Shown piece after piece: positions 1,273-25,937 of a stretch of DNA of 32,000 bases. The stretch's first letter is position 1. Every line of letters starts with the position of its first letter. Source of the DNA: Sedimentisphaera cyanobacteriorum (GTDB taxonomy: Bacteria > Planctomycetota > Phycisphaerae > Sedimentisphaerales > Sedimentisphaeraceae); NCBI RefSeq assembly GCF_001997385.1, contig NZ_CP019633.1:1170001-1202000 (forward strand), written 5' to 3'. A program made the position numbers and the translations under genes. The notes beneath the pieces were generated by a model. It had not been told where the DNA came from. It worked only from the letters and a program-made list of their open reading frames with translations, and made no database searches.

Positions 1273-1484
1273 CTGCTGATACGGCACGCCGAGTCAAGCT
1301 ACGAGACTGTCCGCGTCTTCGATCCGAACCTCGATCCGCATCCGCTGCTCGTCTCGACTCGCACTCTCGAATTCGCCCCCTGGAATCCCCGCGAATTCTA
1401 CACCGGCGGCTACGACGGCGCTGCCAACGATCGCAAAAACCACAACACGGCATGGATCTACAAAGCATCATTAAGGAGAGGACA

Positions 1485-3311: not shown

Positions 3312-3335
3312 TCGCCCGCAGAGTACCGACAGGGG

Positions 3336-7284: not shown

Positions 7285-7412
7285 TTGATCTCCTTGCTCT
7301 TTAAATTTGCTCATAACTAATCAGGCAAAACCACCACAACCCTAGCTCTTGAAAAAAAACTAATGCATTTCTTCTAAAGTTACTAGGGCAAAAGCTTTTC
7401 AATCATTTTCGG

Positions 7413-7994
7413 TTATTGATTCTCTACCAGCCACTGCAAGTTAAACACAGCAACGTTTATCTGGTCATACAATTTCTTATCGCCGGCTTCATACAGCAGG
7501 TAAATCATCCCATCTTCATCAGCTGATAGGCAGGAATAAGCGCTGTGGCCTTGATCTATCAACCGCTTAACCGGCCATGTTGCGGCACCGTTGAAGGACG
7601 CCCAGACCGACATTTGATATCGCCAGCCGCCCTTCCAATCGGGCACACTGTAAATCAACACGTCTGAAAGCTCTTTAACTGCTTTGTCAGGAACTCTGAA
7701 CAGCCCCGCACGAATACCATATGAGGGTTTTCTGCCGTATTTGAAATAAAACGGCTCACCTGTTTCATACAATTCATCAGAAACTTGCCAATCAACATAT
7801 CTTTCGCCGTCATCATAGCTCCAAGCTATTCTGCGTTTATGATCGACCGACATATGAGATCTTGAGTTGTAATAGATTCGCCCGTCTGCAAGCTCCGCCA
7901 GAGCTGCCTCCCCTGTTCCAGTCATAATACCATCACTAACCTGCCAAGTCTTCCCTCGATCATCGCTGTACATTGAAGTGTTATAATTATACAT
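7413..7994 (-). CDS. Sialidase/BNR-like protein, segment 3 (C-terminal blades)
   Basis: The Asp box SDDRGKTW comes immediately after the break. The remainder is typical GH33 C-terminal strands (..[10 protein letters not shown].., ..[11 protein letters not shown]..). Confidence 0.75.
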
Positions 7995-9154
7995 CCAATA
8001 CCGCTGCTTTTTTTCCCTTTGGCTTTCGGCGGCTGAAGCTGAACTCTCCCCGGAATCAAAAGCCTGCCCTTATGCTTTCCGTGCTTCAGCGTAATACCTG
8101 TGGACATAGCCCCTATATTAATCGGAACATTACCCGGAGCAGCACCATGCCCCATAAAATTGGGTTTTACGGTTATATCCTCTTTCTTCCATGTTTTTCC
8201 ACTATCTTCACTTCTGAATAAAAAGGAAGATTTTCCTGACGTATGAAGAATTAAAATATCACCTGTAACACCATCTTTAACCACATTTGATCCTTTAATC
8301 CCCTTTTCTGAGAGGTTTTCTTCCGAAGACCAAGTTTTGCCTTGATCGGTGCTTTTGCGAAGATAAGAGCAATAACCGGCGAAAGCGAGAACAGTTCCAT
8401 CTTCAGCAACAATTATATGAGGAGAACGAATTTTTCCTGTTGCTTTCCTTTTTCTAAAAAGGGTTTGCTTTTTGAAATAAGGCTTGCTGTTTAGCTCAAA
8501 ACTATTACTAACCGCCTTTTTCCCTGCTATCAAGTCTGTTTCATGGATTTTGAAACGGGTACTTACAACAGAATGCTTGTTATTATTATCTTTGTATTTA
8601 ATGTAGGTTGTCGCAACAATTGTTCCATCCGGCAAGATCTCTATTCCTGGATAGCCGCAATCAGTGCCAGCATTACTCTGCAGCAGTTTAATACGATATT
8701 CTCCTGGACTTGAATTACGCACGTTCTCATAAGTTCCTACCCAAGCAATGAAATGACCGTAAGAAGGGCTCCCTTTTGCTCTGTCTCGAAAAGCTATAAC
8801 CAGCCTCCCGTCTTGAGTATAAACTCCTTGATGCCTGTCTCCAGTTAATCCCAATGAGGTTTTCACCGAATTGCTCCATGTTTTTCCTTCATCTTTGCTG
8901 AACATCATCAGGCTTCTGCCTTGATGTGTGTTCTCCTGCATAATGCAGCAAAGCTCGTTCTGATCAGGCGACATAAAGACATAAGGTTCACAAGGGTCTT
9001 TACCCTTCACATCGGCAATAACTCGGGGGTCTGACCATGTCAATCCACCATCATCAGTTTTGCTCTGAAGTACAACTGACGAATCCGATTTTTTGCCGTG
9101 GCAGAAACCCAAATAGTTGCCATCAGACAATCTGACTATACTGCTGAAAGTCAT
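7922..9154 (-). CDS. Sialidase/BNR-like protein, segment 2 (rest of propeller 1 and most of propeller 2)
   Basis: Asp boxes are [32 protein letters not shown]. The second propeller starts with an [17 protein letters not shown] (RIP-like) motif. The ORF-track ATG at 9154 is probably internal. Confidence 0.75.
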
Positions 9155-9633
9155 AACGCAGTCAAAATTGAGAGGTTTTTTTCTGTCCAGGTTTTTCCTC
9201 CATCCTCACTCATAATACGCGGCATACTCGGGCTTGCAGAGAAAATCCACAGTCTGGTTTTACCAGACTGCATATCCCTCATCCGGTAGATACTGGGACA
9301 ATTTTCATGGCTGCTGAAGGACGCCGGCAATCTTTCATCTATTCGTTTCCATGTTATACCACCGTTATGACTAACAGCCATTAGGCCTGAGTTGCCGCCG
9401 TCGACTATGTTGCATACACAAAAAATTGTTTCACCATCCGGAAGCAGCAGAGTTGCAGGGCGTACCTGACAAACATCCCCTGTTCTCTCAGCAATCTCCA
9501 CGTGCCTTTCTGTATCATCTGAGATATCAATAAGAAGAGGCATTTTTTGAGAAGACTGAGCATAACTGCAAAAGCAAAGAAAAAAAGTGATCATAATAAT
9601 ATTCAAGTTGATAGTAAAGTTTTTGTACTTCAT
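9151..9633 (-). CDS. Sialidase/BNR-like protein, segment 1 (signal peptide and first blades)
   Basis: AAGGA RBS lies 9 nt upstream of the ATG at 9633. Signal peptide is [27 protein letters not shown]. An R-x-P element is present ([17 protein letters not shown]), plus Asp-box-like SHNGGITW and SEDGGKTW. The frame ends 24 nt after the A7 tract. Confidence 0.75.
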
Positions 9634-9669: not shown

Positions 9670-12348
9670 CTAATTTTTAGACCAAGTATTTTTGCCATTT
9701 AATGTATGCACTGTAAGGCCTTCGGTCTTTTCCGGAGTTTTCGGCATAAAAAGGCTCGCAGCGTATCCGATTACCACGCACAGGACTATTCCTATGGTTC
9801 CGTAGAGCAGCAGATGCACATCGGTATATTTCTGCACACAATACAGGCCTGCCGCTCCGAGAATTGCCCCTATCACAGCGCCGCCGCCGTTTGCGCGTGT
9901 TGTAAATATGCCTAAACAGAAAAGCCCGCACATCACGCCTCCCATCAGGCCGAGGATTGTCATAAACATATCCCACAGTGATTTGATGTCGGAGGTGGCA
10001 AACAGCAGAGCCAATACAACGCCCAGCAAACCGAACGTGAAAGTCATAATCCGGCCTAAACGAAGAAATGCTTTTTCGCCTTTCAACAAACTGAAAGGCC
10101 TTATGAAATCTGTTACAAAGGCAGTAGCTGTGCTGTTCATACTTGTGGAAACAGTGGATTGGGCAGCGGCAAACACGCCTGCCACTACTAAACCTGCAAT
10201 CCCTACGGGAAGTTCACGAGCGATAAAAAGAGGGAATATTGCATCGTTCTTGAATGTCGGGTCAATCTGGGCGGGATTGTCCTTGTAAAAAACAAACAGA
10301 GCTGTCCCAACGCCAAAGAAAAGTATTGAGGCGGGTATAATAGTTATAGAATTAGTCCAGATGGACTTTTTTGCAAATTTCATAGAGGATACAGACATAT
10401 ATCTCTGAACAACAGCCATATCTGAAGAATAAGGTACTAACTGCTGCCCGAGCCCGCCAAGAACCACGACCCACAGAGCCGTAGTTGCAAAGCTCACAGA
10501 AGAAAAGTCCCAGTTTACCAGATGGAACTTGTTGTCAGCAGAGGCCGTTTCAAGGAAACCTCCAAAACCTCCTTCAATGCCGTTAATAATCAATGCAAAG
10601 CTGAAAAAAGCACCACCAAGCAGAATGAATGTTTGAATTGCATCAGTCCATACAACCGCTTCAAGACCGCCCATAGTGCAGTAAATAAGGCTCAAGACGC
10701 CAATGGCCATAATACACTGTATCTGCGAGAGAGGCGTAATAGCTGCAAGAGCAAGAGCCGGCAAATACATAACTACTGCCATCCTTCCAATCTGGAAGAA
10801 GATAAACGATGCGCTTGCAAAAAGGCGGACAAAACGGTTGAAACGTTTCTCCAGATATTCATAAGCGCTGGTTGCATCAATCTTGCGAAAAAATGGAAGG
10901 AAAAATATTATAACAAACGGAGCCAAAACTACGGCGCACATATTAACCCAGAAATATACCCAATCTGTCATAAACGCCTTTGCCGGTATTGCTATGAATG
11001 TTATCGAGCTTAGCATTGTTGCAAAAATACTAAGACCTGCCACAAACCACGGCACGCGCTGGCCGCCTCGAAAATAGTCGTTGGAGTTTTTGTTTCGAAA
11101 TGAGAAAAACACTCCCACTCCGAGCAAAATACCGAGGTAAACCACAATCGTGGACAGATCGATCCATCCAATTGCTTTTTTGATCTGCAGCGGCTTTCCC
11201 GACCATATTTCAGCAGATCGAACTCTTGGCCGAACCTCACCTGAGGGGATAATAATCGGGTCGTTTACCATATCATCGCCCCACCGAACAGCGTTGGTTG
11301 TAACCTGATTAGAGGGAAGATTATCCGATTCTACCCACGTATCTGTGATAGTATGATAAACATAAATCTTTTTAGGAAAGCCTGGATGGTCGTCTTTAAG
11401 TTCATTCTCAAGTCCCCAAAAACTTCCGTCTGCACCTCCAAAGACAAATATATGGCTCTGGCCTACACCAATAGCTGTACCTGCCATGACACTGCTTGGA
11501 AGTGATTTCCTTTTCCGCCATGGATCTAAAGGACCGTTATAGGTTTTCGTATCAGGGTTGTACTGTTCAGGGTCAAACACAAGTGGGTTAAACTCATACA
11601 CGTCTTTAAGGAATTTCACTTCACCTTCTTTGCTGGCGGCTCTGCCGCTCATAATGTAAATGCAGTCTGTCCTGCCATTGTGCTGAACAGCAGTTATATT
11701 GAATGCTCTCGGACTTCCCGGCCAAGGCGGGAGCTTTTGCCAACTAAGGTTATCAGGCTCATCAATCTGCGATAAATCCAGACACCAGAAATTCTTCATT
11801 GCAGTTTCAAGGCCTCTGCCTGTTGTTCCGCCGGCAACATAAATCCTGCTGCCTATTTTTGCTGCATCGCCATAAACGCAGCGGGAAGGCAGAGAAGGCA
11901 AATCCTTCTTTTCAATTGTTTTGCTTTGCGGATTCCAGCTCAGCATAAAGACATCAGAGTAAGCTCTTTTCGAATCGTTCCCGCCCATACATACTACGCC
12001 GTGTTCGGTGGAAACAGATGCTCCATAGGCAAGCGGACGAGGAAGCGAGAAACCTGTATGCCACTGGAAACCGGAGTCAGACTCTGGGGCTTTAGTTAAA
12101 ACATAAATGTCATTATGCCATTGCTTATCAGATTCCCATACAGGTTTTGGGAAGTTAGCCCCGCCTGCGAGGATAAGGGCATCGTTATGAACTCCTGAAA
12201 ACATCCCTGCCCTGCCGAGCGAATCGGGCAACTCAGGCAGCTCAGTCCAGTCCATATATCTTGGTGAAACCGCTTCATCATTTGCCGCATAACAGGCAAT
12301 AGATAAGAACAAAACAAAAACATATATCAATTTTTCAAAAATTTTCAT
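9670..12348 (-). CDS. Fusion protein: N-terminal NanM/YjhT-like Kelch sialic-acid mutarotase domain + C-terminal sodium:solute symporter (SSS family, SiaT-like)
   Basis: Signal peptide is [21 protein letters not shown]. Residues ~30-385 are Kelch-type and paralogous to ORF 17293-18444 ([33 protein letters not shown] vs [33 protein letters not shown]). Residues ~395-892 are polytopic and SSS-like (many TM helices, [35 protein letters not shown]). Confidence 0.9.
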   Translation of the reverse strand: [892 protein letters not shown]

Positions 12349-12393
12349 AAAGCCACTCTCTTAAATATCATTTCATATTCCAAATAATGAAAA

Positions 12394-13515
12394 TCACCTG
12401 CCGGCATACTGCTTCATTATTTCTTGTGCTTCAGCAAAAGACTCAGCCCTGTAAACCAGCGAAACTCCCGTAGGGAAGCGTTTTTGCACTTCACCACTTA
12501 TAAGCTGTTCTTTGGAAACAGAAACTCTTATAAGTGAAATATTTCGTTCTTTTGCAATACTGTAAATAGTATCTAAATCATTCATCTCGGGCTGGCCGAA
12601 ATCAACAGAAAGGCAGTGCGGTATTTCCATAAACTTTTCTGCTACATGACCAATCTTTCCGCAGGAATGTATAGAGCCTTTCCCGATAGCGTTTAAAACC
12701 ATATCATCATAGCAGGCTATCTTCTCAGAATACATCTCCGGGGAAATCATAACTGAAGAATCATTTCTAAGGAGTATATTCCCGCGTATCATCGCAGCGT
12801 GCTGGTGAGCAAAACCATTTACCTTTTCGGTAAGATAAGGGGAAAAATGCTTTGCGGCATTGGCCTGAGCCTGAGCGGCAAGCTTCATTGCTTTAGCAGT
12901 TAATTCCGGCTCGGTAAGCAGCTCTACAAAAAACTCGCTCCCTCGCACCATAGCTGCGTTGTCAAGAGGTCCCTGAAGGTCAGGTAAGACAATCTGAATC
13001 ATATTCTTAAGCTTTGGATATTCTGAAAGTATCTGTTTGTAAACCTTCAGCGTTTTTTCTGCTTTTGCCATCCAAGGACTTGAAAAATCTGATGGGTCGA
13101 AATTATCGAGGCATTTTTCAAACTCATCCTTTGATTCAAGATGTCTTGCCCATGGGGGATTATCTTCAGCATTTTCCACTTCGCATCCAAACATAGAAGC
13201 CACTAAAACAGTCCCGAAATTCGCTCTTACAGTTAAAGGCAAATCATCATTGATTTCATCACGCATTGCGATGCTTGTATCGAATGCATGTACGAGCTCG
13301 TTATAGAGCATCTTTTCGGGGCTATCAAAAATCTCCCTGTGCGGGAAAGGCTTATAATTTGCACTTTCATCTAACGGATAACACATCACCAGCGGAAGCC
13401 TGTCGGTATCCTGCCATTGCAGAGCCATTTTATGACGCTGTTCAATCTCTTCTTGCCGTTCGGGCTCAAGTATGCTGTTTAGGTGTTTGAGAAGTTTTTT
13501 CAATGGATCAATCAT
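12394..13515 (-). CDS. URO-D/MtaA-like (uroporphyrinogen decarboxylase family) TIM-barrel protein, function unknown
   Basis: This is a 373 aa cytoplasmic-looking protein. Its N-terminal ..DRLPLVM.. and C-terminal ..GSIHSCGKIGHVAEKFMEIPHCLSVDFG.. resemble the family pattern (..DRvP.. / ..lHsCG.....l..l.e.g.d.l..d). The family call is from motif memory only. Confidence 0.55.
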   Translation of the reverse strand: MIDPLKKLLKHLNSILEPERQEEIEQRHKMALQWQDTDRLPLVMCYPLDESANYKPFPHREIFDSPEKMLYNELVHAFDTSIAMRDEINDDLPLTVRANFGTVLVASMFGCEVENAEDNPPWARHLESKDEFEKCLDNFDPSDFSSPWMAKAEKTLKVYKQILSEYPKLKNMIQIVLPDLQGPLDNAAMVRGSEFFVELLTEPELTAKAMKLAAQAQANAAKHFSPYLTEKVNGFAHQHAAMIRGNILLRNDSSVMISPEMYSEKIACYDDMVLNAIGKGSIHSCGKIGHVAEKFMEIPHCLSVDFGQPEMNDLDTIYSIAKERNISLIRVSVSKEQLISGEVQKRFPTGVSLVYRAESFAEAQEIMKQYAGR

Positions 13516-13555
13516 TTATCAATCATCTGTTTTATGTATTCATAAAAATTAGCAG

Positions 13556-14482
13556 TTATTTAAAGAATTCAGGTACGAGCCTTCGAGCCTCTGCGCGAAC
13601 TCGCGGGGCTTCTGTTTCAGGAATCGACCTGTAAGGCCACCTCATCCTGCTTCCCACATCAGCCCATCCGCCTACAACAGCCATAAATCTGTCGCAGGCA
13701 CCATTGCAAAATCCTTTTTCAGTTATGAAAGGTACGATATAATTATCCATAAACTGCCTCAAACGCCCTTCAAGCTCAAGGGAAGAATCCATATCATATT
13801 GCATTTGATCTGTCCATCTCTGAGCAGCAGCAGGGTTTAGGCACGCGGCATTTGAATAGGACCCGCTTGCTCCTTCCTGGATGCCGCTTGCAAGCAGATG
13901 ACCAGGCACAAAAACGCTTAAATTCGGTATATGCTTTCGCATAGAGTCGTACCAAGATTTATCCCCGCCTGCTGTTTTGAGGCCTACTAATCTTGGTACC
14001 TCGCCTGAAAGATATCCAACTTCTTCTGGAGATAGAACTCTCTTTGCATGCGGAGGATTGTACAATACCAAACCGATTCCTTCTGAAGCCTCTGCCATAC
14101 GTTTTAAGAAAACAGCAGCCTCTTCATCAGTAACGGGAAACCAGTCCGGCAGAATAACCTGTACAGCTGAAGGGGCTAAATGAACAACCCGCTTGAGCCG
14201 CTCCAGAGATATCTGGGCGGACATATGGCTCACACCTATCTGAAACGGCATACCAGTTTTATTGCATTTTTCCGCCAAACACTCTGATATCATATCGAAT
14301 TCTGCTTCGCTCTGGCAGTGAAATTCTCCAGTAGTACCGTTTGAATAGATCCCGTCAACCTCCATATCAATCAAGGTATCAATCTCTTCTTTTACTCTGC
14401 ATATATCAAGTGAATCATCATTCCATACTGAAAGCAATGTCGCCCAGTTGCCCTTTATCTGATCTGCTTTAAGAGCTATCAT
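13556..14482 (-). CDS. DHDPS/N-acetylneuraminate-lyase family class I aldolase (paralog 1)
   Basis: Motifs are NGTTGEF, LYNPPHA and the Schiff-base lysine context VGLKTAGGD. Length is 308 aa. Confidence 0.85.
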   Translation of the reverse strand: MIALKADQIKGNWATLLSVWNDDSLDICRVKEEIDTLIDMEVDGIYSNGTTGEFHCQSEAEFDMISECLAEKCNKTGMPFQIGVSHMSAQISLERLKRVVHLAPSAVQVILPDWFPVTDEEAAVFLKRMAEASEGIGLVLYNPPHAKRVLSPEEVGYLSGEVPRLVGLKTAGGDKSWYDSMRKHIPNLSVFVPGHLLASGIQEGASGSYSNAACLNPAAAQRWTDQMQYDMDSSLELEGRLRQFMDNYIVPFITEKGFCNGACDRFMAVVGGWADVGSRMRWPYRSIPETEAPRVRAEARRLVPEFFK

Positions 14483-14493
14483 TCCTTGGCCTT

Positions 14494-15411
14494 TTAATAA
14501 ACTTTTGAAAAGTTTTTCAAGCGGTCTATAGGCTTTTTCTGATCTTCGGTTAATTCCTGAATCGGGCGAACAGGCCTGCCTATACCCATGCCAAGGGTTG
14601 ATAAGCCGTACATAATTCCAGCAATCCAGTTTTTATCTTCTCCCAAGAGCAAAACTTCACGAACTGAAGAGATATGCTCCTGAAGTTCTGAGAGCTGCTG
14701 AAAATCTTCCTGCGTTGCAGCATTTACCGCAGCTACAAAAGCCTCAGGCTCATAATTTGCGCAGACAGGCACTATCCCCGCTGCACCAATCCTAAGCCCC
14801 CATTCAATATCCGGCTCATTGCCCTGCATCACACCAATTGAAAGCCGCTGACATACACCAAGCACTTTCAGGAAGTAGTCCCTGTCTCCGCTGCTTTCTT
14901 TGATCAGATCAGTCCAGCCCTTCTCGGCCATATACTCGATCACTGAAACAGGTATAGTGCTCTGGACGCAGCCCGGGATATTGTAAGTTATCATCTGCAT
15001 ATCTGTCGCTTCACGGCAGGCGGAAAAATGCGACAGCATCTCCTTCTCTGTTTTAAGAGAGATGTAGTATGTAGGCGTTACTACCATACTGGGAAAATCG
15101 AGCCTTTTGAGTATATCAATCTTTTCAAGGGCTCTTCGTGTAGAAGTAGCTATCACTCCCCCCGCAAGTCCTGCACGGCCTTCAGTTTCGTCCTTGGCGA
15201 TCTCCATAGCCCGCTGCCACTGGTCATCTGCAAGAAGAGGCCCCATACCGGCAGAGCCGCCGGCAAAGATTCCATGCGCGCCTGCATCAATGCAATGCCT
15301 TATCACAGCCCTAAAGGCTTTTTCATCCACATTTTCATTTTCATCTACAGGGGTAATAATCGGAACGAGCACCCCTCCGTTAATCTCTTTTTTTTCTGTT
15401 ACATTTTCCAT
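14494..15411 (-). CDS. DHDPS/N-acetylneuraminate-lyase family class I aldolase (paralog 2, divergent GxxGE motif)
   Basis: Motifs are GVLVPIITPVDEN, GGSAGMG in place of G[ST]TGE, TYNIPG and the lysine context LIKESSGD. Length is 305 aa. It lies 11 bp upstream of paralog 1. Confidence 0.85.
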   Translation of the reverse strand: MENVTEKKEINGGVLVPIITPVDENENVDEKAFRAVIRHCIDAGAHGIFAGGSAGMGPLLADDQWQRAMEIAKDETEGRAGLAGGVIATSTRRALEKIDILKRLDFPSMVVTPTYYISLKTEKEMLSHFSACREATDMQMITYNIPGCVQSTIPVSVIEYMAEKGWTDLIKESSGDRDYFLKVLGVCQRLSIGVMQGNEPDIEWGLRIGAAGIVPVCANYEPEAFVAAVNAATQEDFQQLSELQEHISSVREVLLLGEDKNWIAGIMYGLSTLGMGIGRPVRPIQELTEDQKKPIDRLKNFSKVY

Positions 15412-15477: not shown

Positions 15478-17196
15478 CTAACCTTTACTTATAATTTCCC
15501 AATCAACGACCCCTACTTTATTTGCCCATTCTTTATACTTCTTAGCCATTTGTTTAACTTTTTCTGGATATTTTTTGCTCAAGTCATTAAGTTCTCCTCT
15601 ATCCTCAGAGATATCATATAGTTCCCATTTACCATCCTGTCCAGGGTAAAAACATTGCCACTCACCCGGGTATTCTGAAACCAGTTTCCACTTATTAATT
15701 CGCACTGCCCTGTTTCCTTCATGTTCCCAAAACAAAGGTTTTCTTTGCCGCTTTTCTCCCTCAAATACCTTAAACAGACTTTCCCCTTCATAAGGTTTTA
15801 TGGTTTTTCCTTTGAAAATGCTGGGGTATTTTGTTCCTGACACCTCGCACAGAGTAGGCATAATATCTGTAATATGCCCTACCTGATTACAGATTGAACC
15901 TGCATCATTTATGTAATTGGGCCAATGAGCAATAAAAGGTGTAGAAATCCCTCCTTCATGAACCCATATCTTATGCCTTCTGAAAGGTGTATTTGAAACA
16001 CTTGCCCAATTAAGACCGTAGCTTCCAAAGGTATCAGGCCCTCCAAGAGGCCTGCCAGGAATATCACCTTTTACCACAGGCTCGCCATTTGGAGTTTTTT
16101 CAGGAGCGAAAGAACTATTCCATGGGCTGTTAAGTCTTTCAATAGTATCATTGAGATGTCCTTCAGCTGAACCACCATTATCAGATAGGAAAAGAATAAG
16201 GGTATTATTTATTTTTCGATTATTCTTTATTGCTTGAAGAACTTTCCCCACTGACCTATCTAATTCCTCTACCATTGCTGCATAAGTCTGCATCCTTTGG
16301 GCCTGCCAATCTTTATTTTGCTCCATTACCCAAGATTTGCTAGCTTCATCTTGTATTTTTACATCAATATCCTCTGAGACAAGCCCTATTTCTTTAACAT
16401 TTTTTATTCTTTGCTTACGCGTTTCATACCATCCCTTATCGTAAACACCTTTGTATTTATCTATAGTTTCTTTTCTTGCATGAAGCGGGTAATGGGGTGC
16501 AGGGCTTGCTAAATACAAAAACATTGGTGAACTTTTATCAGCAGTTTTTATATAATCAACAGCTTTATCTGCAATAGCATCTGTATAGAAAAAATCATCC
16601 CAAGGCTCAATAAAATCATTTCCTTCAACTAAACCTGCCGGGTCCCACAAACTTCCATAAGCGGGAATAGTCCCGAAAAATTTATCGAAGCCTCTCTGTA
16701 AAGGCCAATTATCAATATTTTTTTTTGTAAGGGCATCTCTAGCAACGTGCCACTTGCCAACCATTGCAGTCTGATACCCCCCAATCTTCAGCATCTCCGC
16801 CAGTGTTACGGAATTTTTGCTCAAAGTTCCCCTATATCCCTCATAACCTTGGTCTTCAACCATAAGCCCTATACCTGCCTGATGAGGATAGAGACCAGTA
16901 AGAAGAGAGGCTCGTGTCGGACAACATCTTGCTGAATTGTAAAATTGCGAAAAACGTAAACCGTTTTCAGCTAATTTGTCAATATTTGGAGTATGAATTT
17001 CACCACCATAACACCCCAAATCAGAGTACCCTAAATCGTCAGCCATAATAAGAACCACATCAGGTTTTTGCATGGACTGGCTAAAAACAGTTTTATTTTC
17101 CAAAGATTTACAACCATTAAGACAAAATCCAATATTTGATATACCTATTCCTATTGCTGCCTTTTTGATAAAATTTCGTCTATTCATATTTTCCAC
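15478..17196 (-). CDS. Cys-type arylsulfatase, TAT-like signal
   Basis: CCPTRASLLTG (C-x-P-x-R) is present. The N-terminus is MENMNRRNFIKKAAIGIGIS. Family blocks are LIMADDLGYSDLGCYGG and FLSDNGG. Confidence 0.9.
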   Translation of the reverse strand: MENMNRRNFIKKAAIGIGISNIGFCLNGCKSLENKTVFSQSMQKPDVVLIMADDLGYSDLGCYGGEIHTPNIDKLAENGLRFSQFYNSARCCPTRASLLTGLYPHQAGIGLMVEDQGYEGYRGTLSKNSVTLAEMLKIGGYQTAMVGKWHVARDALTKKNIDNWPLQRGFDKFFGTIPAYGSLWDPAGLVEGNDFIEPWDDFFYTDAIADKAVDYIKTADKSSPMFLYLASPAPHYPLHARKETIDKYKGVYDKGWYETRKQRIKNVKEIGLVSEDIDVKIQDEASKSWVMEQNKDWQAQRMQTYAAMVEELDRSVGKVLQAIKNNRKINNTLILFLSDNGGSAEGHLNDTIERLNSPWNSSFAPEKTPNGEPVVKGDIPGRPLGGPDTFGSYGLNWASVSNTPFRRHKIWVHEGGISTPFIAHWPNYINDAGSICNQVGHITDIMPTLCEVSGTKYPSIFKGKTIKPYEGESLFKVFEGEKRQRKPLFWEHEGNRAVRINKWKLVSEYPGEWQCFYPGQDGKWELYDISEDRGELNDLSKKYPEKVKQMAKKYKEWANKVGVVDWEIISKG

Positions 17197-17292: not shown

Positions 17293-18444
17293 TTATTCAA
17301 AACCATTTCCAATCCAAATTTTAGGCGATCTGATCCTTGGGGATATCTCGCCGCTTGTAATAACAATATATCCATTCCAATTAACAGCATTAGAAGTAAC
17401 GTGTGTTTTAGGCATTTCCCCATTCATTGACCAAGTATTTTCTACTGTATCATAAACAAATATTTCTTTAGAGAATCCAGGATGGTCTTGTTTTAAAATC
17501 TCGCCCTTACCATATAAACTGCCATCTGAGGCACCAAAAATATAGATATAGTTTCGACCTATAGAGGATACTGTGCCTGCACAGAAAGGTCTTTCGGCAG
17601 ATTTTTTCCTCAGCCATGTTCTTTGAGCTGGATTATACTCCCAAATATCATTCAAGAATGTAATCTCCTGACCTGAATCTTTTGATCTTCCACCTATCAC
17701 ATAGATGCATTCTTCTTCTCCGTTATATTGGCTTACAGTCATGCTACATGCTCTTGGCCGCCCAGAAAAGTCATTTAATTTTTGCCACTCGAGTACATCA
17801 TTGTCTCTTTTGTCTAAATCTAACGCCCAAAAGTCTTTCACAGCAGACTCTAACGCCATTTCACGCTGCCCACTTACAACATAAATTTTATTACCAATTG
17901 CAGTACACCCCCCGTTAGCGCAAGGTTGAGGAAGAGAGGGCAGCTCTTCGCAAACTATATTTTTCTCTTTACTGTTCCACCTAAGAACAAAGGCATCACT
18001 ATATACTTTCTTTTCATCTAAACCGCCAATACAGACTACACCATAATCAGTAGTTACGCTCATACCGTATGCAATATTTTTATAAAGGCGAAAACCTGTT
18101 CTCCAATAATAATCTTCTCTGATTTTTTCAAGAACCCAGATATCATCCAACCAAACTTTGGAGTTCTCCCAATAAGGTTTAGGAAAATTAGCTCCACCAG
18201 CAACAATCAACGCATTATTACTGACACCTGAATAAGGACCTGCAACTCCAAGAGCATCACACTGCCCCTGAGCTGCAGGCAAAACTGCCAGTTCTTTCCA
18301 TTTAAAGATCCTCATCTCATTCTCTTTCTGTGCTAAAGAAACTGTGCCCAAAATAAACAAACTAATATAGATAAACTTATGTACAATTTGCTCCGAGCGA
18401 GTTATGTGGCTAAAGTTATTTCTTCCCATCAATAATCCAATCAA
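17293..18444 (-). CDS. NanM/YjhT-like Kelch-repeat sialic-acid mutarotase (stand-alone, secreted)
   Basis: It is homologous along its whole length to the N-terminal half of 9670-12348. A hydrophobic signal HKFIYISLFILGTVSLAQ is present. The start is uncertain (ATG 18444 or 18429), and either overlaps the upstream sialidase stop. Confidence 0.8.
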   Translation of the reverse strand: MIGLLMGRNNFSHITRSEQIVHKFIYISLFILGTVSLAQKENEMRIFKWKELAVLPAAQGQCDALGVAGPYSGVSNNALIVAGGANFPKPYWENSKVWLDDIWVLEKIREDYYWRTGFRLYKNIAYGMSVTTDYGVVCIGGLDEKKVYSDAFVLRWNSKEKNIVCEELPSLPQPCANGGCTAIGNKIYVVSGQREMALESAVKDFWALDLDKRDNDVLEWQKLNDFSGRPRACSMTVSQYNGEEECIYVIGGRSKDSGQEITFLNDIWEYNPAQRTWLRKKSAERPFCAGTVSSIGRNYIYIFGASDGSLYGKGEILKQDHPGFSKEIFVYDTVENTWSMNGEMPKTHVTSNAVNWNGYIVITSGEISPRIRSPKIWIGNGFE

Positions 18445-19564
18445 GTGTAAATTTTGAAAAAATTATCTTTGAATATCTAAAACCTTTGCCACCCTCATAC
18501 AAACAAGCTATCTTACCATTATCTAATACGGTTAGAGATGAATAAGCCGCTGGTCCTTCATGAATGGTTCTCTTATGACTCCAAGTCTTTGCTCCATCAT
18601 AACTAACTCTAACTGTCATGTTGGTACGCTTTTTAGAGTCAGGATTGGAGAACAAAATAATGTCCTTATCATTATTCTTATTTGGGGCATACCTTATAAT
18701 ACTTGCTTGACAAGTTGGTTCATTGAGATTAGATTTGTATGACACATAGTCCCAAGTTTCTCCGCAATTAGTGCTGAATGACAAGGCCCTGCTGCCCCTG
18801 TAACGTGAGTTGCGAGAATTCAACAAAACCTTCCCATCAAGAAGCTCTACCACCTGACTTTCATTCAATCCAGGGCGTGCAACATCACTGAGTTTCCATG
18901 TCTTGCCATGATCATCACTGTATATTACATGCGCCCCCTGTTGAAACTTTTTGTACTCACAGCTAATTGTGTGGTTTGCTGGTATAACCAAACGACCTTT
19001 CTTCTTGCCGTACTTGAGTTGTATTCCAGTCCCAGGTCCTGTAGCGTACCATCTCCAATAATCTCGACGGACAGAATCACTGATATTATTAGGTTTTGTC
19101 CACGTAAGCCCATCGTCCTCAGATTTACTAATATAAGGAATACGAGGATGCTTACTTTCCCCTGCAACAATTCCCTTTAAATGATCACTGCCGTAATTCC
19201 ATGTTAAACCAAGCCAAATAGTGCCAGTTTGTCTATCTACTACTGGACAAGGATTTCCACAAGTATTATCGCCATCATCCCATATTACAACCTGCTTAGA
19301 CCAAGACTCACCATTATCCTCGCTTCGTTTCATTAACAAATCTATATCACCTTCATCTCCCACACCATCCTTTCTTCCTTCACAAAAGGCTAATAGAGTA
19401 CCTTTATTTGTTCTTATAATTGAAGGAATTCTGTAAGTGTTATAGCCGTTCTCGTGCCTCACAAAAAGATCAGTGTACTCAATCTCATTTTTATCATTAC
19501 CTTCTGCAAAAACAGCAACAGATACTACAAACATAAACAAACAAAAATAATTCTTAAAAGTCAT
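18416..19564 (-). CDS. GH33 exo-alpha-sialidase (secreted)
   Basis: The FRIP motif is YRIPSIIRT. Five Asp-box-like repeats are SEDNGESW, SEDDGLTW, SDDHGKTW, STNCGETW, SYDGAKTW. Signal peptide is MTFKNYFCLFMFVVSVAVFA. Confidence 0.92.
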   Translation of the reverse strand: MTFKNYFCLFMFVVSVAVFAEGNDKNEIEYTDLFVRHENGYNTYRIPSIIRTNKGTLLAFCEGRKDGVGDEGDIDLLMKRSEDNGESWSKQVVIWDDGDNTCGNPCPVVDRQTGTIWLGLTWNYGSDHLKGIVAGESKHPRIPYISKSEDDGLTWTKPNNISDSVRRDYWRWYATGPGTGIQLKYGKKKGRLVIPANHTISCEYKKFQQGAHVIYSDDHGKTWKLSDVARPGLNESQVVELLDGKVLLNSRNSRYRGSRALSFSTNCGETWDYVSYKSNLNEPTCQASIIRYAPNKNNDKDIILFSNPDSKKRTNMTVRVSYDGAKTWSHKRTIHEGPAAYSSLTVLDNGKIACLYEGGKGFRYSKIIFSKFTLDWIIDGKK

Positions 19565-19653: not shown

Positions 19654-22455
19654 CTAATCGCCCCAATTTGATGCCATTATTACTAAATCACGAATATCGA
19701 CAATGCCGTCTTTATTCAAATCTCCTGAATATAAACTTATATAATTCTTATAATCAGCTTTACTAACTAAAACCTCATCAATGTAACCTTGGAATATTCT
19801 GTTATCCTCATTGAAATGGCCTATTACAACATTTGCATTCAATTCAACGTCAGATTTGAGGGTATTGTCCTGCTGTGCTTCCAATTTACCATCTAAAATT
19901 ATTACAAATTTATAGTCAGCAATGTCTTTGGCAAAAACTACTTCATGCCATTTGTTATCACTCACATTAGTAGTTCCTTCAACTTTAACAGTATTTCCAT
20001 CCGTATCGCTAACAAAAAACTGCAATACACCATTTCTAATTCTTGTCCACCAAGATGATTCTCCAGGGCCAACATCCCTTGCAACCAAGGCGCCTGAATT
20101 ATCGGTACCCCCACTGCTATGTTTATTAGTCCTGAATACCGCAGATATAAAGAAAGGCGATTCCGATTCAATGTTAAAATAATTCAATAATGTGCCTCTT
20201 GTATCGAAGTCGTGATTTCTTATCACTATTCCGTTACCATTACCATTCAAATGCAATGCAACACTCCCTGAACTCGAGGAACTTCCTTCTGCAAAACCCA
20301 GCTCACCTTCAGTTCTTCCATGAAAGCCCTTCCCTTTTTTGTCGTTCACTTTATATGGAGCTGCTTTTATATTTTGGTCAAGATCAAATTCCTCAAAGTC
20401 ATACATAAACAAAACTTTGCTGTATCTGTTATTTCTCAGAGGGGGAAATTTCTCAAAACCTTCAATCCCCTCTCTAGGTACTCTGTAGACCATTAAATCT
20501 TTTGGCCTTATCCAACGATCCCCTATCATCAGATTAACCATTGGGAAAATGTAGCTTTCATCAACATACATTCCTAAATCGTTAAATCTCCAAGGCAGCC
20601 CTTGAAAATCATCCACCGTCATCAAATACTGCCATGTTTCCATATCATCTTCGGTTTTGGCAAGAGCAAGTCTTTCTCTAGGCAAAGCCGGATGCGGCCA
20701 AGCATCTGGGTCAGAATAAGTCCAGAACAAAAATATTTCGTTCGTATTATCATCTCTTCTGACATTAAATGCATTCATAGGAGAGATGATAGGCATTATA
20801 TTAATGTCGGTTGACCATGTAGCTCCTCCATCTGAGGAATCTGCATACAAAAGTCTTCCCATATCACTACGGGCAACCAACCTTACTTGCCCGTTGTTCA
20901 ATTCAACAACCTGAGCTTCTTGCAGATTAAAACCATTAGTAGTTGACCTATCAAGGACGTTTGACTTTGTCCATGTTAGTCCATCATCGTCGCTGTAATA
21001 AGTTGTAACGCCACCCACGGCTTCATCATATTGGGTCCCTGGGTTAATAAATATCCTACCATTACTGATTTGAGAAATTTTACTGTTCATCACTTTATGC
21101 TTTTTTGGAGCTTGATTAACCCAAATAATATCGCTCCAAGAAGATCCTTCATCATTTGAAATTTTAACTCCCAATTTTCTCAAATTATTTGGTTGTTTTA
21201 CATTAAACATTGCCAGAAGCCTACCAGAATTTAAGTTAAGAATATTTTTACTGCTTTTGCTACCCAAAGAATCAAAAATATCTGTCCCATTCCATGTAAG
21301 TCCTTCATCATCTGAGGAAAGATAACTAGAGCCTACATGCAGAATCAATTCATTATTAACCCTATTCATATCTCCCATTGCTGAATTTTCAAAACAAAAC
21401 ATCTTATAATTTTTAAGATGTTTATCATTGCCCTCATAACTTAAATCATCTATGTTTACTATAGCTCCAGAAGCCCCAAATACTATACCTCCATAGTTAG
21501 TGTTACGCAGTGATTTACTTTCTAGTACTAAGCTGCCGTCTATGTAAAATAGAATGTTTATTTTGTCGATAACAACCTTAAAGTCATACCACTTATTGGA
21601 CTGTATATCCAGTGATGAGCTGTTTCTTAACTTTTCCTTAAGCCACCCGTCTATCAATTCCCATCGCTTTTCTGATGTATCATAAATCAGGGAGACCTTG
21701 TAAACATGATTGCTGTCAATATTGTGCCTTAAGGAAATTTCAAAGTGAGAATGAGGGGCAGAATAAAGAATATTAAAACGCCCTTCTAGGACAGTGTCTC
21801 TTGAAAAACAATTGATTTTAACTTCGGAAGGATTGTTTATTGAATAAAGTTGAAGGTATTTATTGCTTCCCGAACTAACAACGGTATTGACACCTGAAAT
21901 ATTTTGCCATCCAGTATCTTTAAAATTCAGCATGTTATCAAAAGAGTAACTTTCAGAAAAAACAGGTTCTTCATTTCGGTAAACAAGCCTATTCCCATAG
22001 AGTTCATTATACTTTTCGTCGTACTTTTCAATAAGAGCTTGTTTTTGCCCAACCCAGATCTCAGCCTTTGTAAGCCAAAACCCCTTATCAGAACCATTTC
22101 GCGAATTTGAAAATGTGAACTGAAGTTCATTATTACCAGTTATTAATTCATCTTTTATCCAAACAAAGCCGCGTTGTTTGCCTGTAGCACTAAAAAGCTC
22201 AGGAGGAGGTGTTACCGTAATACCATTAATTACCAGCCCCAATTCATCAAAATTATTAATATCTACGGTTTCGATAACAAGCATATAATTCATATTTTGA
22301 TCTAAAGAGTTTATTTCAAAATTTAATTCCTCCTGCTGTGCCTGATCAGTCAACTCCAAAGGTAATTTATCTTGATTCGGGCTTAGAATTGTATATGAAA
22401 ATAGCCGGGAACTTAACAGTAAAACAATAGATACTCGATATATACATGCAATCAT
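19654..22455 (-). CDS. 933 aa secreted multidomain protein: N-terminal beta-sandwich modules, BNR/sialidase-like propeller, LamG domain, dockerin-like tail
   Basis: It carries a signal peptide. A DUF1080/LamG-like block is ..WYDFKVVIDKINILFYIDGSLV... Asp boxes are SDDEGLTW, SNDEGSSW, SDDDGLTW, SSDGGATW, TEDDMETW. The LamG block is ..NKWHEVVFAKD..VIILDGKLEA..FQGYIDEVLVS. The C-terminus is GDLNKDGIVDIRDLVIMASNWGD. Confidence 0.85.
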   Translation of the reverse strand: MIACIYRVSIVLLLSSRLFSYTILSPNQDKLPLELTDQAQQEELNFEINSLDQNMNYMLVIETVDINNFDELGLVINGITVTPPPELFSATGKQRGFVWIKDELITGNNELQFTFSNSRNGSDKGFWLTKAEIWVGQKQALIEKYDEKYNELYGNRLVYRNEEPVFSESYSFDNMLNFKDTGWQNISGVNTVVSSGSNKYLQLYSINNPSEVKINCFSRDTVLEGRFNILYSAPHSHFEISLRHNIDSNHVYKVSLIYDTSEKRWELIDGWLKEKLRNSSSLDIQSNKWYDFKVVIDKINILFYIDGSLVLESKSLRNTNYGGIVFGASGAIVNIDDLSYEGNDKHLKNYKMFCFENSAMGDMNRVNNELILHVGSSYLSSDDEGLTWNGTDIFDSLGSKSSKNILNLNSGRLLAMFNVKQPNNLRKLGVKISNDEGSSWSDIIWVNQAPKKHKVMNSKISQISNGRIFINPGTQYDEAVGGVTTYYSDDDGLTWTKSNVLDRSTTNGFNLQEAQVVELNNGQVRLVARSDMGRLLYADSSDGGATWSTDINIMPIISPMNAFNVRRDDNTNEIFLFWTYSDPDAWPHPALPRERLALAKTEDDMETWQYLMTVDDFQGLPWRFNDLGMYVDESYIFPMVNLMIGDRWIRPKDLMVYRVPREGIEGFEKFPPLRNNRYSKVLFMYDFEEFDLDQNIKAAPYKVNDKKGKGFHGRTEGELGFAEGSSSSSGSVALHLNGNGNGIVIRNHDFDTRGTLLNYFNIESESPFFISAVFRTNKHSSGGTDNSGALVARDVGPGESSWWTRIRNGVLQFFVSDTDGNTVKVEGTTNVSDNKWHEVVFAKDIADYKFVIILDGKLEAQQDNTLKSDVELNANVVIGHFNEDNRIFQGYIDEVLVSKADYKNYISLYSGDLNKDGIVDIRDLVIMASNWGD

Positions 22456-24764: not shown

Positions 24765-25937
24765 CTAAATCCGAGCAACCGTTTTGCCTTCATAAAGTGC
24801 AAGGGGTTTGTAAATCACTTCATCGGAATTTATAGGTCGCTGCCCTGTCCGGATCTCATCAAGCACCTTGGCAGCCCGTCCGCCCAGCTCGTATTCATCT
24901 ATCGTTACTGAAGTGAGTCTGTCTAGAAATACGCCGTTTCTCGCATGGCGATCTCCAAAGCCGATTAAAGAAACATCTTCCGGTATCCTGAGCCCCAACT
25001 CCTTAAGCGCAAACTGAACAAGTTCGGCTTCCTCATCGTCATTGCAGAAGATCGCAGTAATCGGATCTGCCCCGCCTACCATTGGCTTGAGAGCATCCAT
25101 CCGTTTCTGAAGCTGATAATCAGGACCTTCACCGGGGCCGTTACCGTAAAATATATGCTTTGCGGGCAGCTCAAGGCCACCTTCGGCGAGTGTTTTACGA
25201 AGGGTGTCTTCGTGTATTTCGGTCATCGTATAACGTGTGCGGGCAAAGTATGCGATTTGCCCGTGGCCTTTATCGAGCAATTCTCTGGCGGCAAGCCTTG
25301 AAACTTCCGCCGCATCCCAAGTGATAAGAGGCGCTGAAACGCCCGCTACTGGACGATGGCAGAAAACAACAGGGATGTCATGCTGCTGGAGCTGGGTGGC
25401 ATGGTAAGCCGGCGTTTGCGGCTTTAATGCCGGCACCATAGCCACTCCGGATACATTCTTATCAAGCATCTGCAGGACTATATCCCCCTGCTTGCTGATG
25501 TTGAAATCTGTATTGCAGAGAAGAACCTGATGACGGTTGAGGGCTGCGCAGTGATCGAAGCCCTTGGCCAAAACTGGGTATATACCGTGAGATATTTCAG
25601 GCAGCAGCAAACTGAGCACAGCAAGCTGCTCCTCTTTCCCGTGATTGAGCTGAGTGAAATAATTCCCCTTTCCGTGGACACGGCGAACGTAACCTTCTTT
25701 GACTAACTCATCTATAGCATTGCGGACGGTGTTTCTCGCTACGCCGAGTCTGTCAATAAGCATATTCTCAGAAGGCAGCGCTTGGCCTTGCTTAAAATGG
25801 CCGCTCTTGAGCTCATCAAGAAGAAACTCCTTGATGATTTCATATTTTGGGCGGCTTCGCCTGGCTCCTCTCAAGCCGGCCAGTTTGCTTTCTAATTTTC
25901 CGCTAAGTTCAATTTGCTCTGTAGGTAATTTTGCCAT
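24765..25937 (-). CDS. AraR-like transcriptional regulator (GntR-type winged HTH + LacI/PBP1-type sugar-binding domain)
   Basis: The N-terminal region is KYEIIKEFLLDELKSGHFKQGQALPSENMLIDRLGVARNTVRNAIDELVKEGYVRRVHGKGNYF. The C-terminal ~270 aa has periplasmic-binding-protein-like alternation (VSGVAMVP.., IPVVFCHRP.., ITAIFCNDDEEA.., VSLIGFGD). Confidence 0.85.
   Translation of the reverse strand: MAKLPTEQIELSGKLESKLAGLRGARRSRPKYEIIKEFLLDELKSGHFKQGQALPSENMLIDRLGVARNTVRNAIDELVKEGYVRRVHGKGNYFTQLNHGKEEQLAVLSLLLPEISHGIYPVLAKGFDHCAALNRHQVLLCNTDFNISKQGDIVLQMLDKNVSGVAMVPALKPQTPAYHATQLQQHDIPVVFCHRPVAGVSAPLITWDAAEVSRLAARELLDKGHGQIAYFARTRYTMTEIHEDTLRKTLAEGGLELPAKHIFYGNGPGEGPDYQLQKRMDALKPMVGGADPITAIFCNDDEEAELVQFALKELGLRIPEDVSLIGFGDRHARNGVFLDRLTSVTIDEYELGGRAAKVLDEIRTGQRPINSDEVIYKPLALYEGKTVARI

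Follow-up and report, generated by a model that had tools for sequence, protein, structure and literature searches.

Gene content of the locus

The window analysed here is a stretch of DNA of 32,000 nucleotides. One of its gene strings, on the reverse strand, holds a gene for a NanM-SSS fusion protein, called siaF below, together with sialidase-like BNR_2 genes and two DHDPS/NanA-like aldolase genes. Listed from the head of the cluster, the genes are:

24765..25937, (-), regulator with a GntR-type HTH and a periplasmic-binding fold, at the head of the gene cluster (domains)
19654..22455, (-), large BNR_2 + Laminin_G_3 protein, sialidase-like with a lectin-type domain (domains)
18416..19564, (-), exported BNR_2 sialidase-like enzyme (Pfam BNR_2, 131 bits; signal peptide)
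17293..18444, (-), free exported NanM paralogue, cyclically permuted, with predicted catalytic residues E366 and R372 (domains, alignment, leader)
15478..17196, (-), sulfatase with a twin-arginine-type leader, RRNFIK (Pfam Sulfatase; leader)
13556..15411, (-), two cytoplasmic DHDPS-family aldolases, one at 14494-15411 and a NanA-like one at 13556-14482 (Pfam DHDPS)
12394..13515, (-), cytoplasmic protein of 373 aa, encoded directly upstream of siaF (weak MtaA/URO-D-like match)
9670..12348 including the stop, (-), siaF-type gene encoding a NanM-SSS fusion of 892 aa (ORF list, Pfam/NCBIfam domains, colinear homologues)

The regulator is 39% identical to that of a similar cluster in L. sulfuriphilus, and the sialidase at 18416-19564 is 38% identical to the sialidase of the nan cluster of Anaerohalosphaera lusitana. 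The start of the free NanM gene overlaps the end of this upstream sialidase gene. Neither aldolase carries a leader, and neither reaches the NanA equivalog cutoffs. N-acetylneuraminate lyases are the best PDB matches (E 5e-14) for the 13556-14482 product, and the 14494-15411 product matches both DHDPS and NAL structures. The locus holds two sulfatases. NanK, NanE and AGE genes were not found within the window.

The protein encoded at 12394-13515 gives an MtaA-like NCBIfam match below the cutoff (E 6e-7), and a search for Pfam domains in it found none. A homologue of it adjoins siaF in one related locus (L017). A relationship to the URO-D genes found in the nan cluster of A. lusitana was considered and rejected, there being no detectable similarity. 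The BNR genes on the other side of siaF, at 7413-9633, show apparent frameshifts.

Architecture and topology of the fusion protein

The siaF gene is one uninterrupted ATG-to-stop ORF. Its product runs from a signal peptide through a six-bladed NanM-type Kelch propeller (residues ∼28-386) and an eight-residue linker into a 13-helix SSS domain, the same succession of signal peptide, propeller and SSS-type membrane domain that the initial annotation had read in it, and no stop or frameshift separates the two halves. Its features are:

12283..12348, (-), signal peptide, residues 1-22, with probable type I cleavage after CYA (hydropathy, AF2, homologue leaders)
11191..12267, (-), six-bladed Kelch propeller, residues 28-386, a permuted NanM lacking the dimerisation hairpin (PF24996, TIGR03548, alignment, AF2, Foldseek)
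11218..11241, (-), catalytic motif GEVRPRVR, residues 370-377 (motif mapping)
11167..11190, (-), linker PLQIKKAI, residues 387-394, from the last propeller strand to TM1 (AF2 secondary structure)
9739..11166, (-), SSS (LeuT-fold) domain of 13 helices, residues 395-870, SiaT-like (phmmer, Foldseek, AF2)
10999..11022, (-), unwound TM1 segment ATMLSSIT, residues 443-450 (residue mapping onto PmSiaT)
10783..10785, (-), R522, equivalent to SiaT Arg135 (mapping and conservation)

Domain models agree with this division. Pfam NANM (PF24996) scores 103 bits against a cutoff of 45 and, with Kelch motifs, spans residues 28-361; Pfam SSF (PF00474) scores 139 bits over residues 425-831, and NCBIfam TIGR00813 (sss) is likewise above its cutoff. 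The best NCBIfam mutarotase model is that of the cyclically permuted mutarotases, TIGR03548 (E 9e-40; score 137 against a cutoff of 243), while TIGR03547 scores 96 against a trusted cutoff of 256. In the full-length AF2 model (pLDDT 83, pTM 0.84) the last propeller strand covers residues 381-386 and the first transmembrane helix residues 395-418. The pTM, taken by itself, points to a defined arrangement of the modelled domains.

Hydropathy and the AF2 model both give a leader, followed by an all-beta propeller and 13 long helices. The hydrophobic leader peaks at residue 12 and is modelled as a helix (residues 2-21) followed by a low-confidence stretch (21-27). No hydrophobic segment occurs over residues 23-397; TM1 is then centred near residue 407 and is followed by a K/R-rich loop. 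A lipoprotein signal was considered, as the leader contains SIAC, and rejected: homologues have comparable leaders with AxA-type sites and no conserved lipobox Cys, which makes type I cleavage the likelier processing. The prediction that the propeller is periplasmic is supported by the leader, by a TM1 that is N-out and by the positive-inside loop that follows it. The claim that the Kelch domain faces the periplasm, and that the fusion is topologically coherent, thus holds in the prediction, and Severi et al. also placed the SiaF propeller in the periplasm (PMC8461474).

The propeller domain

The fused propeller aligns over its full length with a circularly permuted E. coli NanM (EcNanM) at 27% identity. 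The alignment shows a gap of ∼21 residues in the fusion at the position of the helical dimerisation hairpin of EcNanM, and the hairpin is missing from the fused propeller as judged by this alignment. AF2 models the domain as all-beta with a pLDDT of about 90, and its Foldseek matches are Kelch propellers. A 2008 study by Severi et al. is said to have identified a Glu and an Arg as the catalytic residues of E. coli NanM. Residues E371 and R377 of the fusion align with E228 and R234 of the EcNanM precursor (E209 and R215 of the mature protein). Of the 80 genome homologues, 76 keep the catalytic motif (GE..P..R). Among the listed single-propeller fusions the share is about 88%, and ∼10% of these fusions lack R377. 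From these sequence features we infer that the propeller is a monomeric, cyclically permuted NanM with predicted mutarotase activity, and the NanM-like character first assigned to it is borne out by the PF24996 score, the permuted alignment and the fold.

The transporter domain

The SSS domain resembles one structure strongly and specifically: 5NV9, the only crystallised sialic acid SSS transporter. A phmmer comparison aligns the two almost without gaps over residues 6-483 of 5NV9 (E 8e-111), and the next best structures reach E 2e-52 or weaker. Foldseek superposes the domain on 5NVA/5NV9 with a target-normalised TM score of 0.93, an rmsd of 2.2-2.5 Å and 39% identity.

In Proteus mirabilis SiaT (PmSiaT), Arg135 forms a salt bridge to the sialic acid carboxylate, which Ser60 and Thr63 also bind; the Na2 site is formed by Ala56, Leu59, Ala339, Ser342 and Ser343, and the Na3 site by Ser345, Ser346 and Asp182 (PMC5931594). 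The three carboxylate ligands correspond to S447, T450 and R522 of the fusion and are invariant in all homologues examined (R522 in 120/120 and 78/78). Both predicted Na+ sites are also kept (A443, L446, A728, S731, T732, S734, T735 and D569, with A443 and L446 mapping to Na2), and the sole changes in them are conservative Ser-to-Thr substitutions.

Several other pocket residues differ. SiaT Thr58, which contacts the anomeric OH, and Gln82, which contacts the glycerol tail (PMC5931594), are replaced in the fusion by M445 and N469, and G81V, F243G, N247Q and Q250P are further differences from PmSiaT. Several of these changes are clade-wide: T58M and Q82N each occur in 73 of 78 homologues, F243 becomes G, A or S, and Q250 becomes S or P. 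With these changes the fusion may prefer another substrate or anomer than PmSiaT does. Thr58 is nonetheless the least conserved of the SiaT ligands, and the T58A variant of PmSiaT is fully active (PMC5931594). Two of the residues of the fusion, Y465 and N469 (F78Y and Q82N), are also present in Staphylococcus aureus SiaT (SaSiaT), a proven Neu5Ac/Neu5Gc transporter that prefers Neu5Gc (PMC6039549).

Distribution of related fusions

The fused architecture is widespread. A homologue scan of species-representative genomes gave at least 579 relatives, and the 80 that were kept are all near full length, matching query residues ∼1-887. Homologues share 46-74% identity over nearly the whole query, and those of full length include members of the Bacteroidota, Verrucomicrobiota and Planctomycetota. 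At least one nan-type gene lies within 10 kb in 53 of the 80 related loci. The closest relatives come from A. lusitana and from Sedimentisphaerales and Anaerohalosphaeraceae MAGs, all of which we take to live in marine or sediment habitats, not in the gut. The orthologue from A. lusitana is 73% identical, and its nan-type cluster also encodes a sialidase, a DHDPS-family aldolase and members of the GlcNAc 2-epimerase (PF07221) and SASA (sialate O-acetylesterase) families.

The free NanM copy and tandem-propeller relatives

The stand-alone gene at 17293-18444 had been called a paralogue of the fused propeller, and the comparison agrees: the two are 43% identical over the full length of the free gene (E 8e-113). 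In a neighbor-joining tree the free copy forms a lone deep branch. By sequence, then, it is a true but old paralogue of the fused propeller, not a recent duplicate. Both copies keep the catalytic residues and a leader, and a division of labour between them is a matter for speculation. A separate NanM gene near the fusion was found in none of the 80 kept related loci; most fusions must thus be their own source of any mutarotase activity.

Some relatives have a tandem NanM-NanM-SSS arrangement. In these the distal propeller retains the catalytic Arg and the membrane-proximal one has lost it, with Q or P in its place; in the neighbor-joining tree it is the membrane-proximal propeller that groups with the fused propeller of the window. 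The idea that the free NanM is the counterpart of the distal propeller was rejected, as the tree gives this grouping no support; in BLAST the free NanM has a slight edge towards distal propellers (35-40% against 30-35%).

Relation to known systems

This fusion architecture was already known. Severi et al. (2021, Microb Genom; PMC8461474) named a clade of NanM-SSS fusions SiaF (ST5), noted its topology and proposed an anomer hand-off; they gave Alistipes timonensis A0A1H4AP10 as an example and reported the family in Planctomycetes, Verrucomicrobia and Bacteroidetes, beside sialidase and lyase genes. That paper contains no transport, mutarotase or channelling assays of SiaF, and we found no later one that does. 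SiaF is very common in this bacterial group. The protein of the window shares with it the order of leader, permuted NanM propeller without the dimer hairpin and 13-TMH SSS domain, the N-out, C-in topology of the SSS domain (from alignment, model and positive-inside loop) and a place among sialocatabolic genes. It differs in its apparent source, a Sedimentisphaerales/Anaerohalosphaera-like planctomycete rather than a gut organism, and in a locus that adds sulfatases, two aldolases and the free NanM.

Its two halves have separate counterparts. P. mirabilis SiaT (5NV9/5NVA) has the same carboxylate triad and Na2/Na3 sites but lacks an N-terminal enzyme domain; the fusion, for its part, has Met for Thr58 and Gly, Gln and Pro for Phe243, Asn247 and Gln250, and shares F78Y and Q82N with the S. 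aureus protein. E. coli NanM/YjhT (2UVK) is likewise a periplasmic six-bladed Kelch propeller with the GE..P..R motif. However, it is a free homodimer, whereas the propeller of the window lacks the hairpin, is tethered to a membrane protein and is permuted in blade order (the 27% identity is that after re-permutation). Akkermansia NanM-NanZ (ST4) carries the same enzyme domain, facing the periplasm, at the N-terminus of a transporter (Severi et al. 2021). That transporter is an unrelated MFS protein in which an extra TM helix fixes the topology, unlike the SSS domain, which is naturally N-out.

Proposed function and alternatives

We consider it very probable that the siaF product is a SiaF-type (ST5) Na+-coupled sialic acid symporter with an exported, monomeric, permuted NanM domain. 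Its cargo would be a sialic acid (Neu5Ac, Neu5Gc) or a close nonulosonic acid. Exported sialidases, aided by periplasmic sulfatases, would free alpha-sialic acid from glycans, and NanM, both free and tethered, would accelerate alpha/beta interconversion. Held on its eight-residue linker directly above the transporter, the tethered domain may produce the transported anomer near the outward-facing vestibule. The SSS domain would then bring the sugar in with two Na+ ions, and cytoplasmic NanA-like aldolases would cleave it. The anomer hand-off in this scheme is a plausible hypothesis already published for SiaF (PMC8461474), and tethering may further bring a kinetic advantage, that is, channelling.

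A protein of the same architecture might instead carry a related 2-keto-3-deoxy sugar acid, not Neu5Ac itself. Candidates are Neu5Gc, Kdn, the O-sulfated or O-methylated sialic acids of marine animals and bacterial nonulosonic acids. We regard this as a real but clearly less probable reading. It draws on the pocket, where the carboxylate ligands are invariant and yet, throughout the clade, the surroundings of the glycerol tail, N-acyl group and anomeric OH are not those of PmSiaT, and on the match of F78Y and Q82N to the Neu5Gc-preferring SaSiaT. It also accommodates a locus with two sulfatases and two divergent aldolases but no NanK, NanE or AGE, and the presumed marine or sediment habitat of the closest relatives. 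However, SaSiaT still transports Neu5Ac with the same two substitutions, Thr58 varies most among the SiaT ligands and T58A retains full activity, and genes of the GlcNAc 2-epimerase and SASA families accompany the orthologue in the nan-type cluster of A. lusitana.

Two further readings give the propeller another role. It is unlikely, in our estimation, that the tethered propeller is docked rigidly over the vestibule, where it would be indispensable for capture and hand-off, and that the pocket (Met for Thr58) has co-evolved with it. Under that reading the tandem relatives would be snapshots of an enzyme turning into the receptor domain of a transporter, and the free and fused NanM of the window would be the unfused equivalent of a two-propeller system. 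About as doubtful is a mainly non-catalytic fused propeller that captures and hands off substrate like a tethered binding protein and leaves catalysis to the free NanM. The free copy in the window, with its intact motif, would suit such a role, as would the single-propeller fusions without R377 and the tandem proteins, whose Arg-deficient inner propeller is the one that groups with that of the window. Against this, the GE..P..R motif, E371 and R377 included, is complete in the fusion of the window and kept in 76 of the 80 genome homologues, and a separate NanM to which catalysis could be left was found in none of the 80 related loci.

That the single ORF is an artefact, with adjacent nanM and siaT genes joined by a sequencing or assembly error, is effectively refuted: the apparent frameshifts in the neighbouring BNR genes do mean that indels are present in the assembly or the genome, but over 120 listed independent full-length homologues and the 80 kept genome loci, from several phyla, have the two halves in the same continuous order, and the linker and TM1 are conserved among homologues, so the join is neither a frameshift nor an assembly error.

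Implications

As a predicted Na+-coupled symporter with its own NanM domain, the protein of the window adds little to published work beyond one more, non-gut, SiaF example. The additions made here are the clade-wide T58M and Q82N changes, the rare co-located free NanM and the tandem propellers in which the inner catalytic Arg is lost. They come with residue-level predictions for biochemistry: catalytic E371 and R377, ligands S447, T450 and R522, and the clade-specific M445 and N469. Whether tethering is of benefit is a question that concerns the whole SiaF family rather than the locus of the window. If tethering sped the uptake of freshly released alpha-sialic acid, SiaF would clearly exemplify the coupling of an enzyme to a transporter on the outside of the membrane.

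Architecture of the fusion protein

siaF (window 9670-12348, minus strand) is a single unbroken ORF, from ATG to stop, encoding 892 aa. Hydropathy analysis indicates that the N-terminus carries a hydrophobic leader, that residues 23–397 contain no hydrophobic stretch, and that a first transmembrane segment (TM1) is centred near residue 407; the loop that follows is K/R-rich and, by the positive-inside rule, cytoplasmic. Pfam assigns NANM (PF24996) and Kelch motifs to residues 28–361 and the sodium:solute symporter family (PF00474) to residues 425–831. Among NCBIfam models, TIGR00813 (sss) scores above cutoff, and the top model for the N-terminal half is TIGR03548, ‘cyclically-permuted mutarotase family’ (E 9e-40, below its trusted cutoff). 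ORF, Pfam and hydropathy thus confirm the leader, Kelch propeller and SSS domain described in the initial annotation. It had also raised a stop or frameshift between the halves; the frame is open throughout and homologues are colinear across both.

This is exactly the architecture that defines SiaF, a clade of ST5 (SSS) transporters described by Severi et al. 2021 (Microb Genom 7:000614; PMC8461474): ‘CPM + TMD (13 TMH)’, together with a leader peptide and a NanM domain that is monomeric and lacks the dimer hairpin, reported from Bacteroidetes, Planctomycetes and Verrucomicrobia. Since those authors also proposed that the NanM domain hands beta-Neu5Ac straight to the transporter, the initial annotation's description and inference coincide with the published SiaF hypothesis. 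They called the experimental evidence very scarce (PMC8461474), and our literature search found no later experimental work on SiaF among the papers it covered.

The full-length AlphaFold2 model (input alignment of 40 sequences) has a mean pLDDT of 83.3, a pTM of 0.84 and 13 long helices beyond residue 395. Its last propeller strand ends at 386 and TM1 starts at 395, leaving a linker of only ∼8 residues, so that in the model the propeller would have to rest immediately on the transporter's periplasmic face; the high pTM is consistent with the domains having a defined arrangement. We consider it likely that the fusion works as a Na+/sialic acid symporter of the SiaF type whose periplasmic mutarotase domain is active, a reading in line with the initial annotation and supported by the domains, the topology and the match to SiaT, the Proteus mirabilis sialic acid symporter. 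Channelling from the mutarotase domain to the transporter is a plausible inference.

The transporter half

Among all PDB sequences, SiaT (5NV9) is by far the best match (E 8e-111, residues 393–870 against 6–483, almost gap-free), followed by SMVT, SMCT1, NIS and the SGLTs at E 2e-52 or weaker. Foldseek aligns the modelled membrane domain with 5NVA/5NV9 at a target-normalised TM-score of 0.93 (rmsd 2.2–2.5 Å, 39% identity). The SiaT ligand residues are defined by crystallography and mutagenesis (PMC5931594).

SiaT ligand residues and their counterparts in the window protein
Carboxylate ligands: SiaT Ser60, Thr63, Arg135; window S447, T450, R522; invariant in 120/120 and 78/78 homologues
Na2 site: SiaT Ala56, Leu59, Ala339, Ser342, Ser343; window A443, L446, A728, S731, T732; kept, one Ser-to-Thr
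Na3 site: SiaT Ser345, Ser346, Asp182; window S734, T735, D569; kept, one Ser-to-Thr
Rest of pocket: SiaT T58, Q82, F78, G81, F243, N247, Q250; window M445, N469, Y465, V468, G632, Q636, P639; different
Codons of M445 and N469: nt 11014-11016 and 10942-10944, minus strand

Met at SiaT position 58 and Asn at 82 are clade-wide (73/78 each among NanM-fused genome homologues). These pocket differences do not argue strongly against sialic acid as cargo: of the SiaT ligands Thr58 is conserved least, and the T58A mutant is hyperactive (PMC5931594); the proven Neu5Ac/Neu5Gc transporter of S. aureus, which prefers Neu5Gc, carries F78Y and Q82N (PMC6039549). Y465 and N469 of the fusion are the same residues as in that Neu5Gc-preferring protein. 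A preference for Neu5Gc, Kdn or a modified or sulfated nonulosonic acid is compatible with the symporter reading, and we hold it as a tentative possibility.

The propeller half and its relatives

Direct sequence search matches E. coli NanM/YjhT (EcNanM, 2UVK) weakly and in permuted order (query 32–144 to YjhT 229–346, query 189–256 to YjhT 35–94). Once circularly permuted, the MG1655 EcNanM sequence could be aligned from end to end with the fused propeller (27% identity); the ∼21 residues of the EcNanM helical dimerisation hairpin are absent from the fused domain. EcNanM GEAKPGLR (E228/R234 of the precursor, E209/R215 mature), whose Glu and Arg we take to be catalytic, aligns with GEVRPRVR (E371/R377) of the fusion and has the counterpart GEISPRIR (E366/R372) in the free NanM, the stand-alone exported propeller (17293-18444, minus strand). 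The GE..P..R motif is kept in 76 of the 80 genome homologues and in ∼88% of the listed single-propeller fusions. That the propeller serves mainly as a capture domain is improbable; the SiaF reading keeps it an active mutarotase.

The initial annotation's claim that fused and free propellers are paralogous holds, at 43% identity over the whole length (E 8e-113). The free NanM has its own leader and many stand-alone relatives. In a bootstrapped NJ tree it forms a lone deep branch, neither duplicated recently from the fused domain nor sister to any fused class. At its start the gene overlaps the 3' end of an exported BNR_2 sialidase gene (18416-19564, minus strand), which suggests translational coupling. 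No separate NanM gene lies within 10 kb of siaF at any of the 80 related loci, making the co-located copy the window's one unusual feature.

Outside the window, in eight relatives of 1242–1292 aa, a tandem pair of propellers precedes the SSS domain (P0008, P0011, P0012, P0033, P0034, P0037, P0047 and P0094; e.g., 10001-13729 in related locus L004). The distal propeller keeps GE..PG.R; in the membrane-proximal one, which nests in the fused-propeller clade beside the window protein in the NJ tree, the catalytic Arg is gone (GEVQHGLQS, GETKKGVPT and similar). As ‘tandem’, ‘two NanM’ and ‘duplicat’ are absent from the SiaF paper's main text (PMC8461474), the NanM-NanM-SSS variant may be undescribed.

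Genomic context

The minus-strand gene string runs from a GntR-type regulator through LamG and prepilin-like proteins, a large BNR+LamG protein, the sialidase and the free NanM to a Tat-leader sulfatase, two cytoplasmic DHDPS-family aldolases (one best matching N-acetylneuraminate lyase structures), a cytoplasmic protein of no assigned role and siaF, then broken BNR genes and a second sulfatase.

15478-17196, minus: sulfatase, twin-arginine-type leader RRNFIK
12394-13515, minus: 373-aa cytoplasmic protein directly upstream of siaF
9151-9633, 7922-9154, 7413-7994, minus: overlapping BNR ORFs A, B and C
5692-7314, minus: sulfatase, twin-arginine-type leader RRQFIK

The 373-aa protein has no Pfam match and a weak MtaA/URO-D-like NCBIfam match (E 6e-7); a 44%-identical homologue adjoins siaF in related locus L017 (12526-13626). 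ORF A plus residues 1–209 of ORF B line up with a single frame in locus L009, and ORF B residues 224–370 with ORF C form one frame in L016. The three ORFs look like two ancestral sialidase-like genes split by frameshifts, either pseudogenes or assembly indels.

Just past the regulator end lies an IS4-type DDE transposase (PF01609; 27895-29655, plus strand), adjoined by a 414-aa ORF (26339-27583) without a Pfam match. On the strand opposite the cluster, 16-4517 (plus) encodes three FG-GAP/VCBS-repeat proteins in a row, one with an alpha/beta-hydrolase (PHB-depolymerase-like esterase) domain and one with an ASPIC/UnbV domain.

The Anaerohalosphaera lusitana orthologue of siaF (73% identity) lies in a nan-type cluster with a GntR regulator, a sialidase, a GlcNAc 2-epimerase-family gene (PF07221), a DHDPS-family aldolase, a SASA-family (sialate O-acetylesterase) gene and two URO-D genes (PF01208), to which the 373-aa protein has no detectable similarity. 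The Limihaloglobus sulfuriphilus cluster is very similar to the window's. Within 10 kb, the 80 genome loci encode a NanA-like aldolase in 47 cases, a sulfatase in 26, a sialidase in 22 and an AGE epimerase in 19. The sulfatases (two in the window's string) hint at sulfated sialoglycan substrates. Exported sialidases and sulfatases would act before SiaF, whose periplasmic domain would be active as a mutarotase and whose SSS domain would import sialic acid with Na+; the cytoplasmic aldolases would act afterwards.

A widespread fusion family

The best 120 database proteins are full-length fusions (47–74% identity to the window protein). A one-genome-per-species scan matched at least 600 stretches, at least 579 of them encoding relatives, and the 80 kept all align over approximately query residues 1–887. 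These relatives belong to Planctomycetota (Pirellulales, Planctomycetales, Sedimentisphaerales, Phycisphaerae), Verrucomicrobiota, Kiritimatiellia, Victivallales, Hydrogenedentota, Omnitrophota, KSB1 and Bacteroidota, including cultured strains such as Novipirellula rosea, Bremerella cremea and Stieleria bergensis. Full-length fusions recurring in database proteins and genome loci show that the join is no artefact, and misassembly can be dismissed with near certainty.

The window's siaF is a new member of a known, widespread fusion family. Across the mutarotase-fused clade another residue stands in for Thr58, the proposed sensor of the anomeric hydroxyl in SiaT (PMC5931594). The SiaF publication (PMC8461474) does not mention this replacement in its main text, and the observation makes a small addition to the published account of SiaF.
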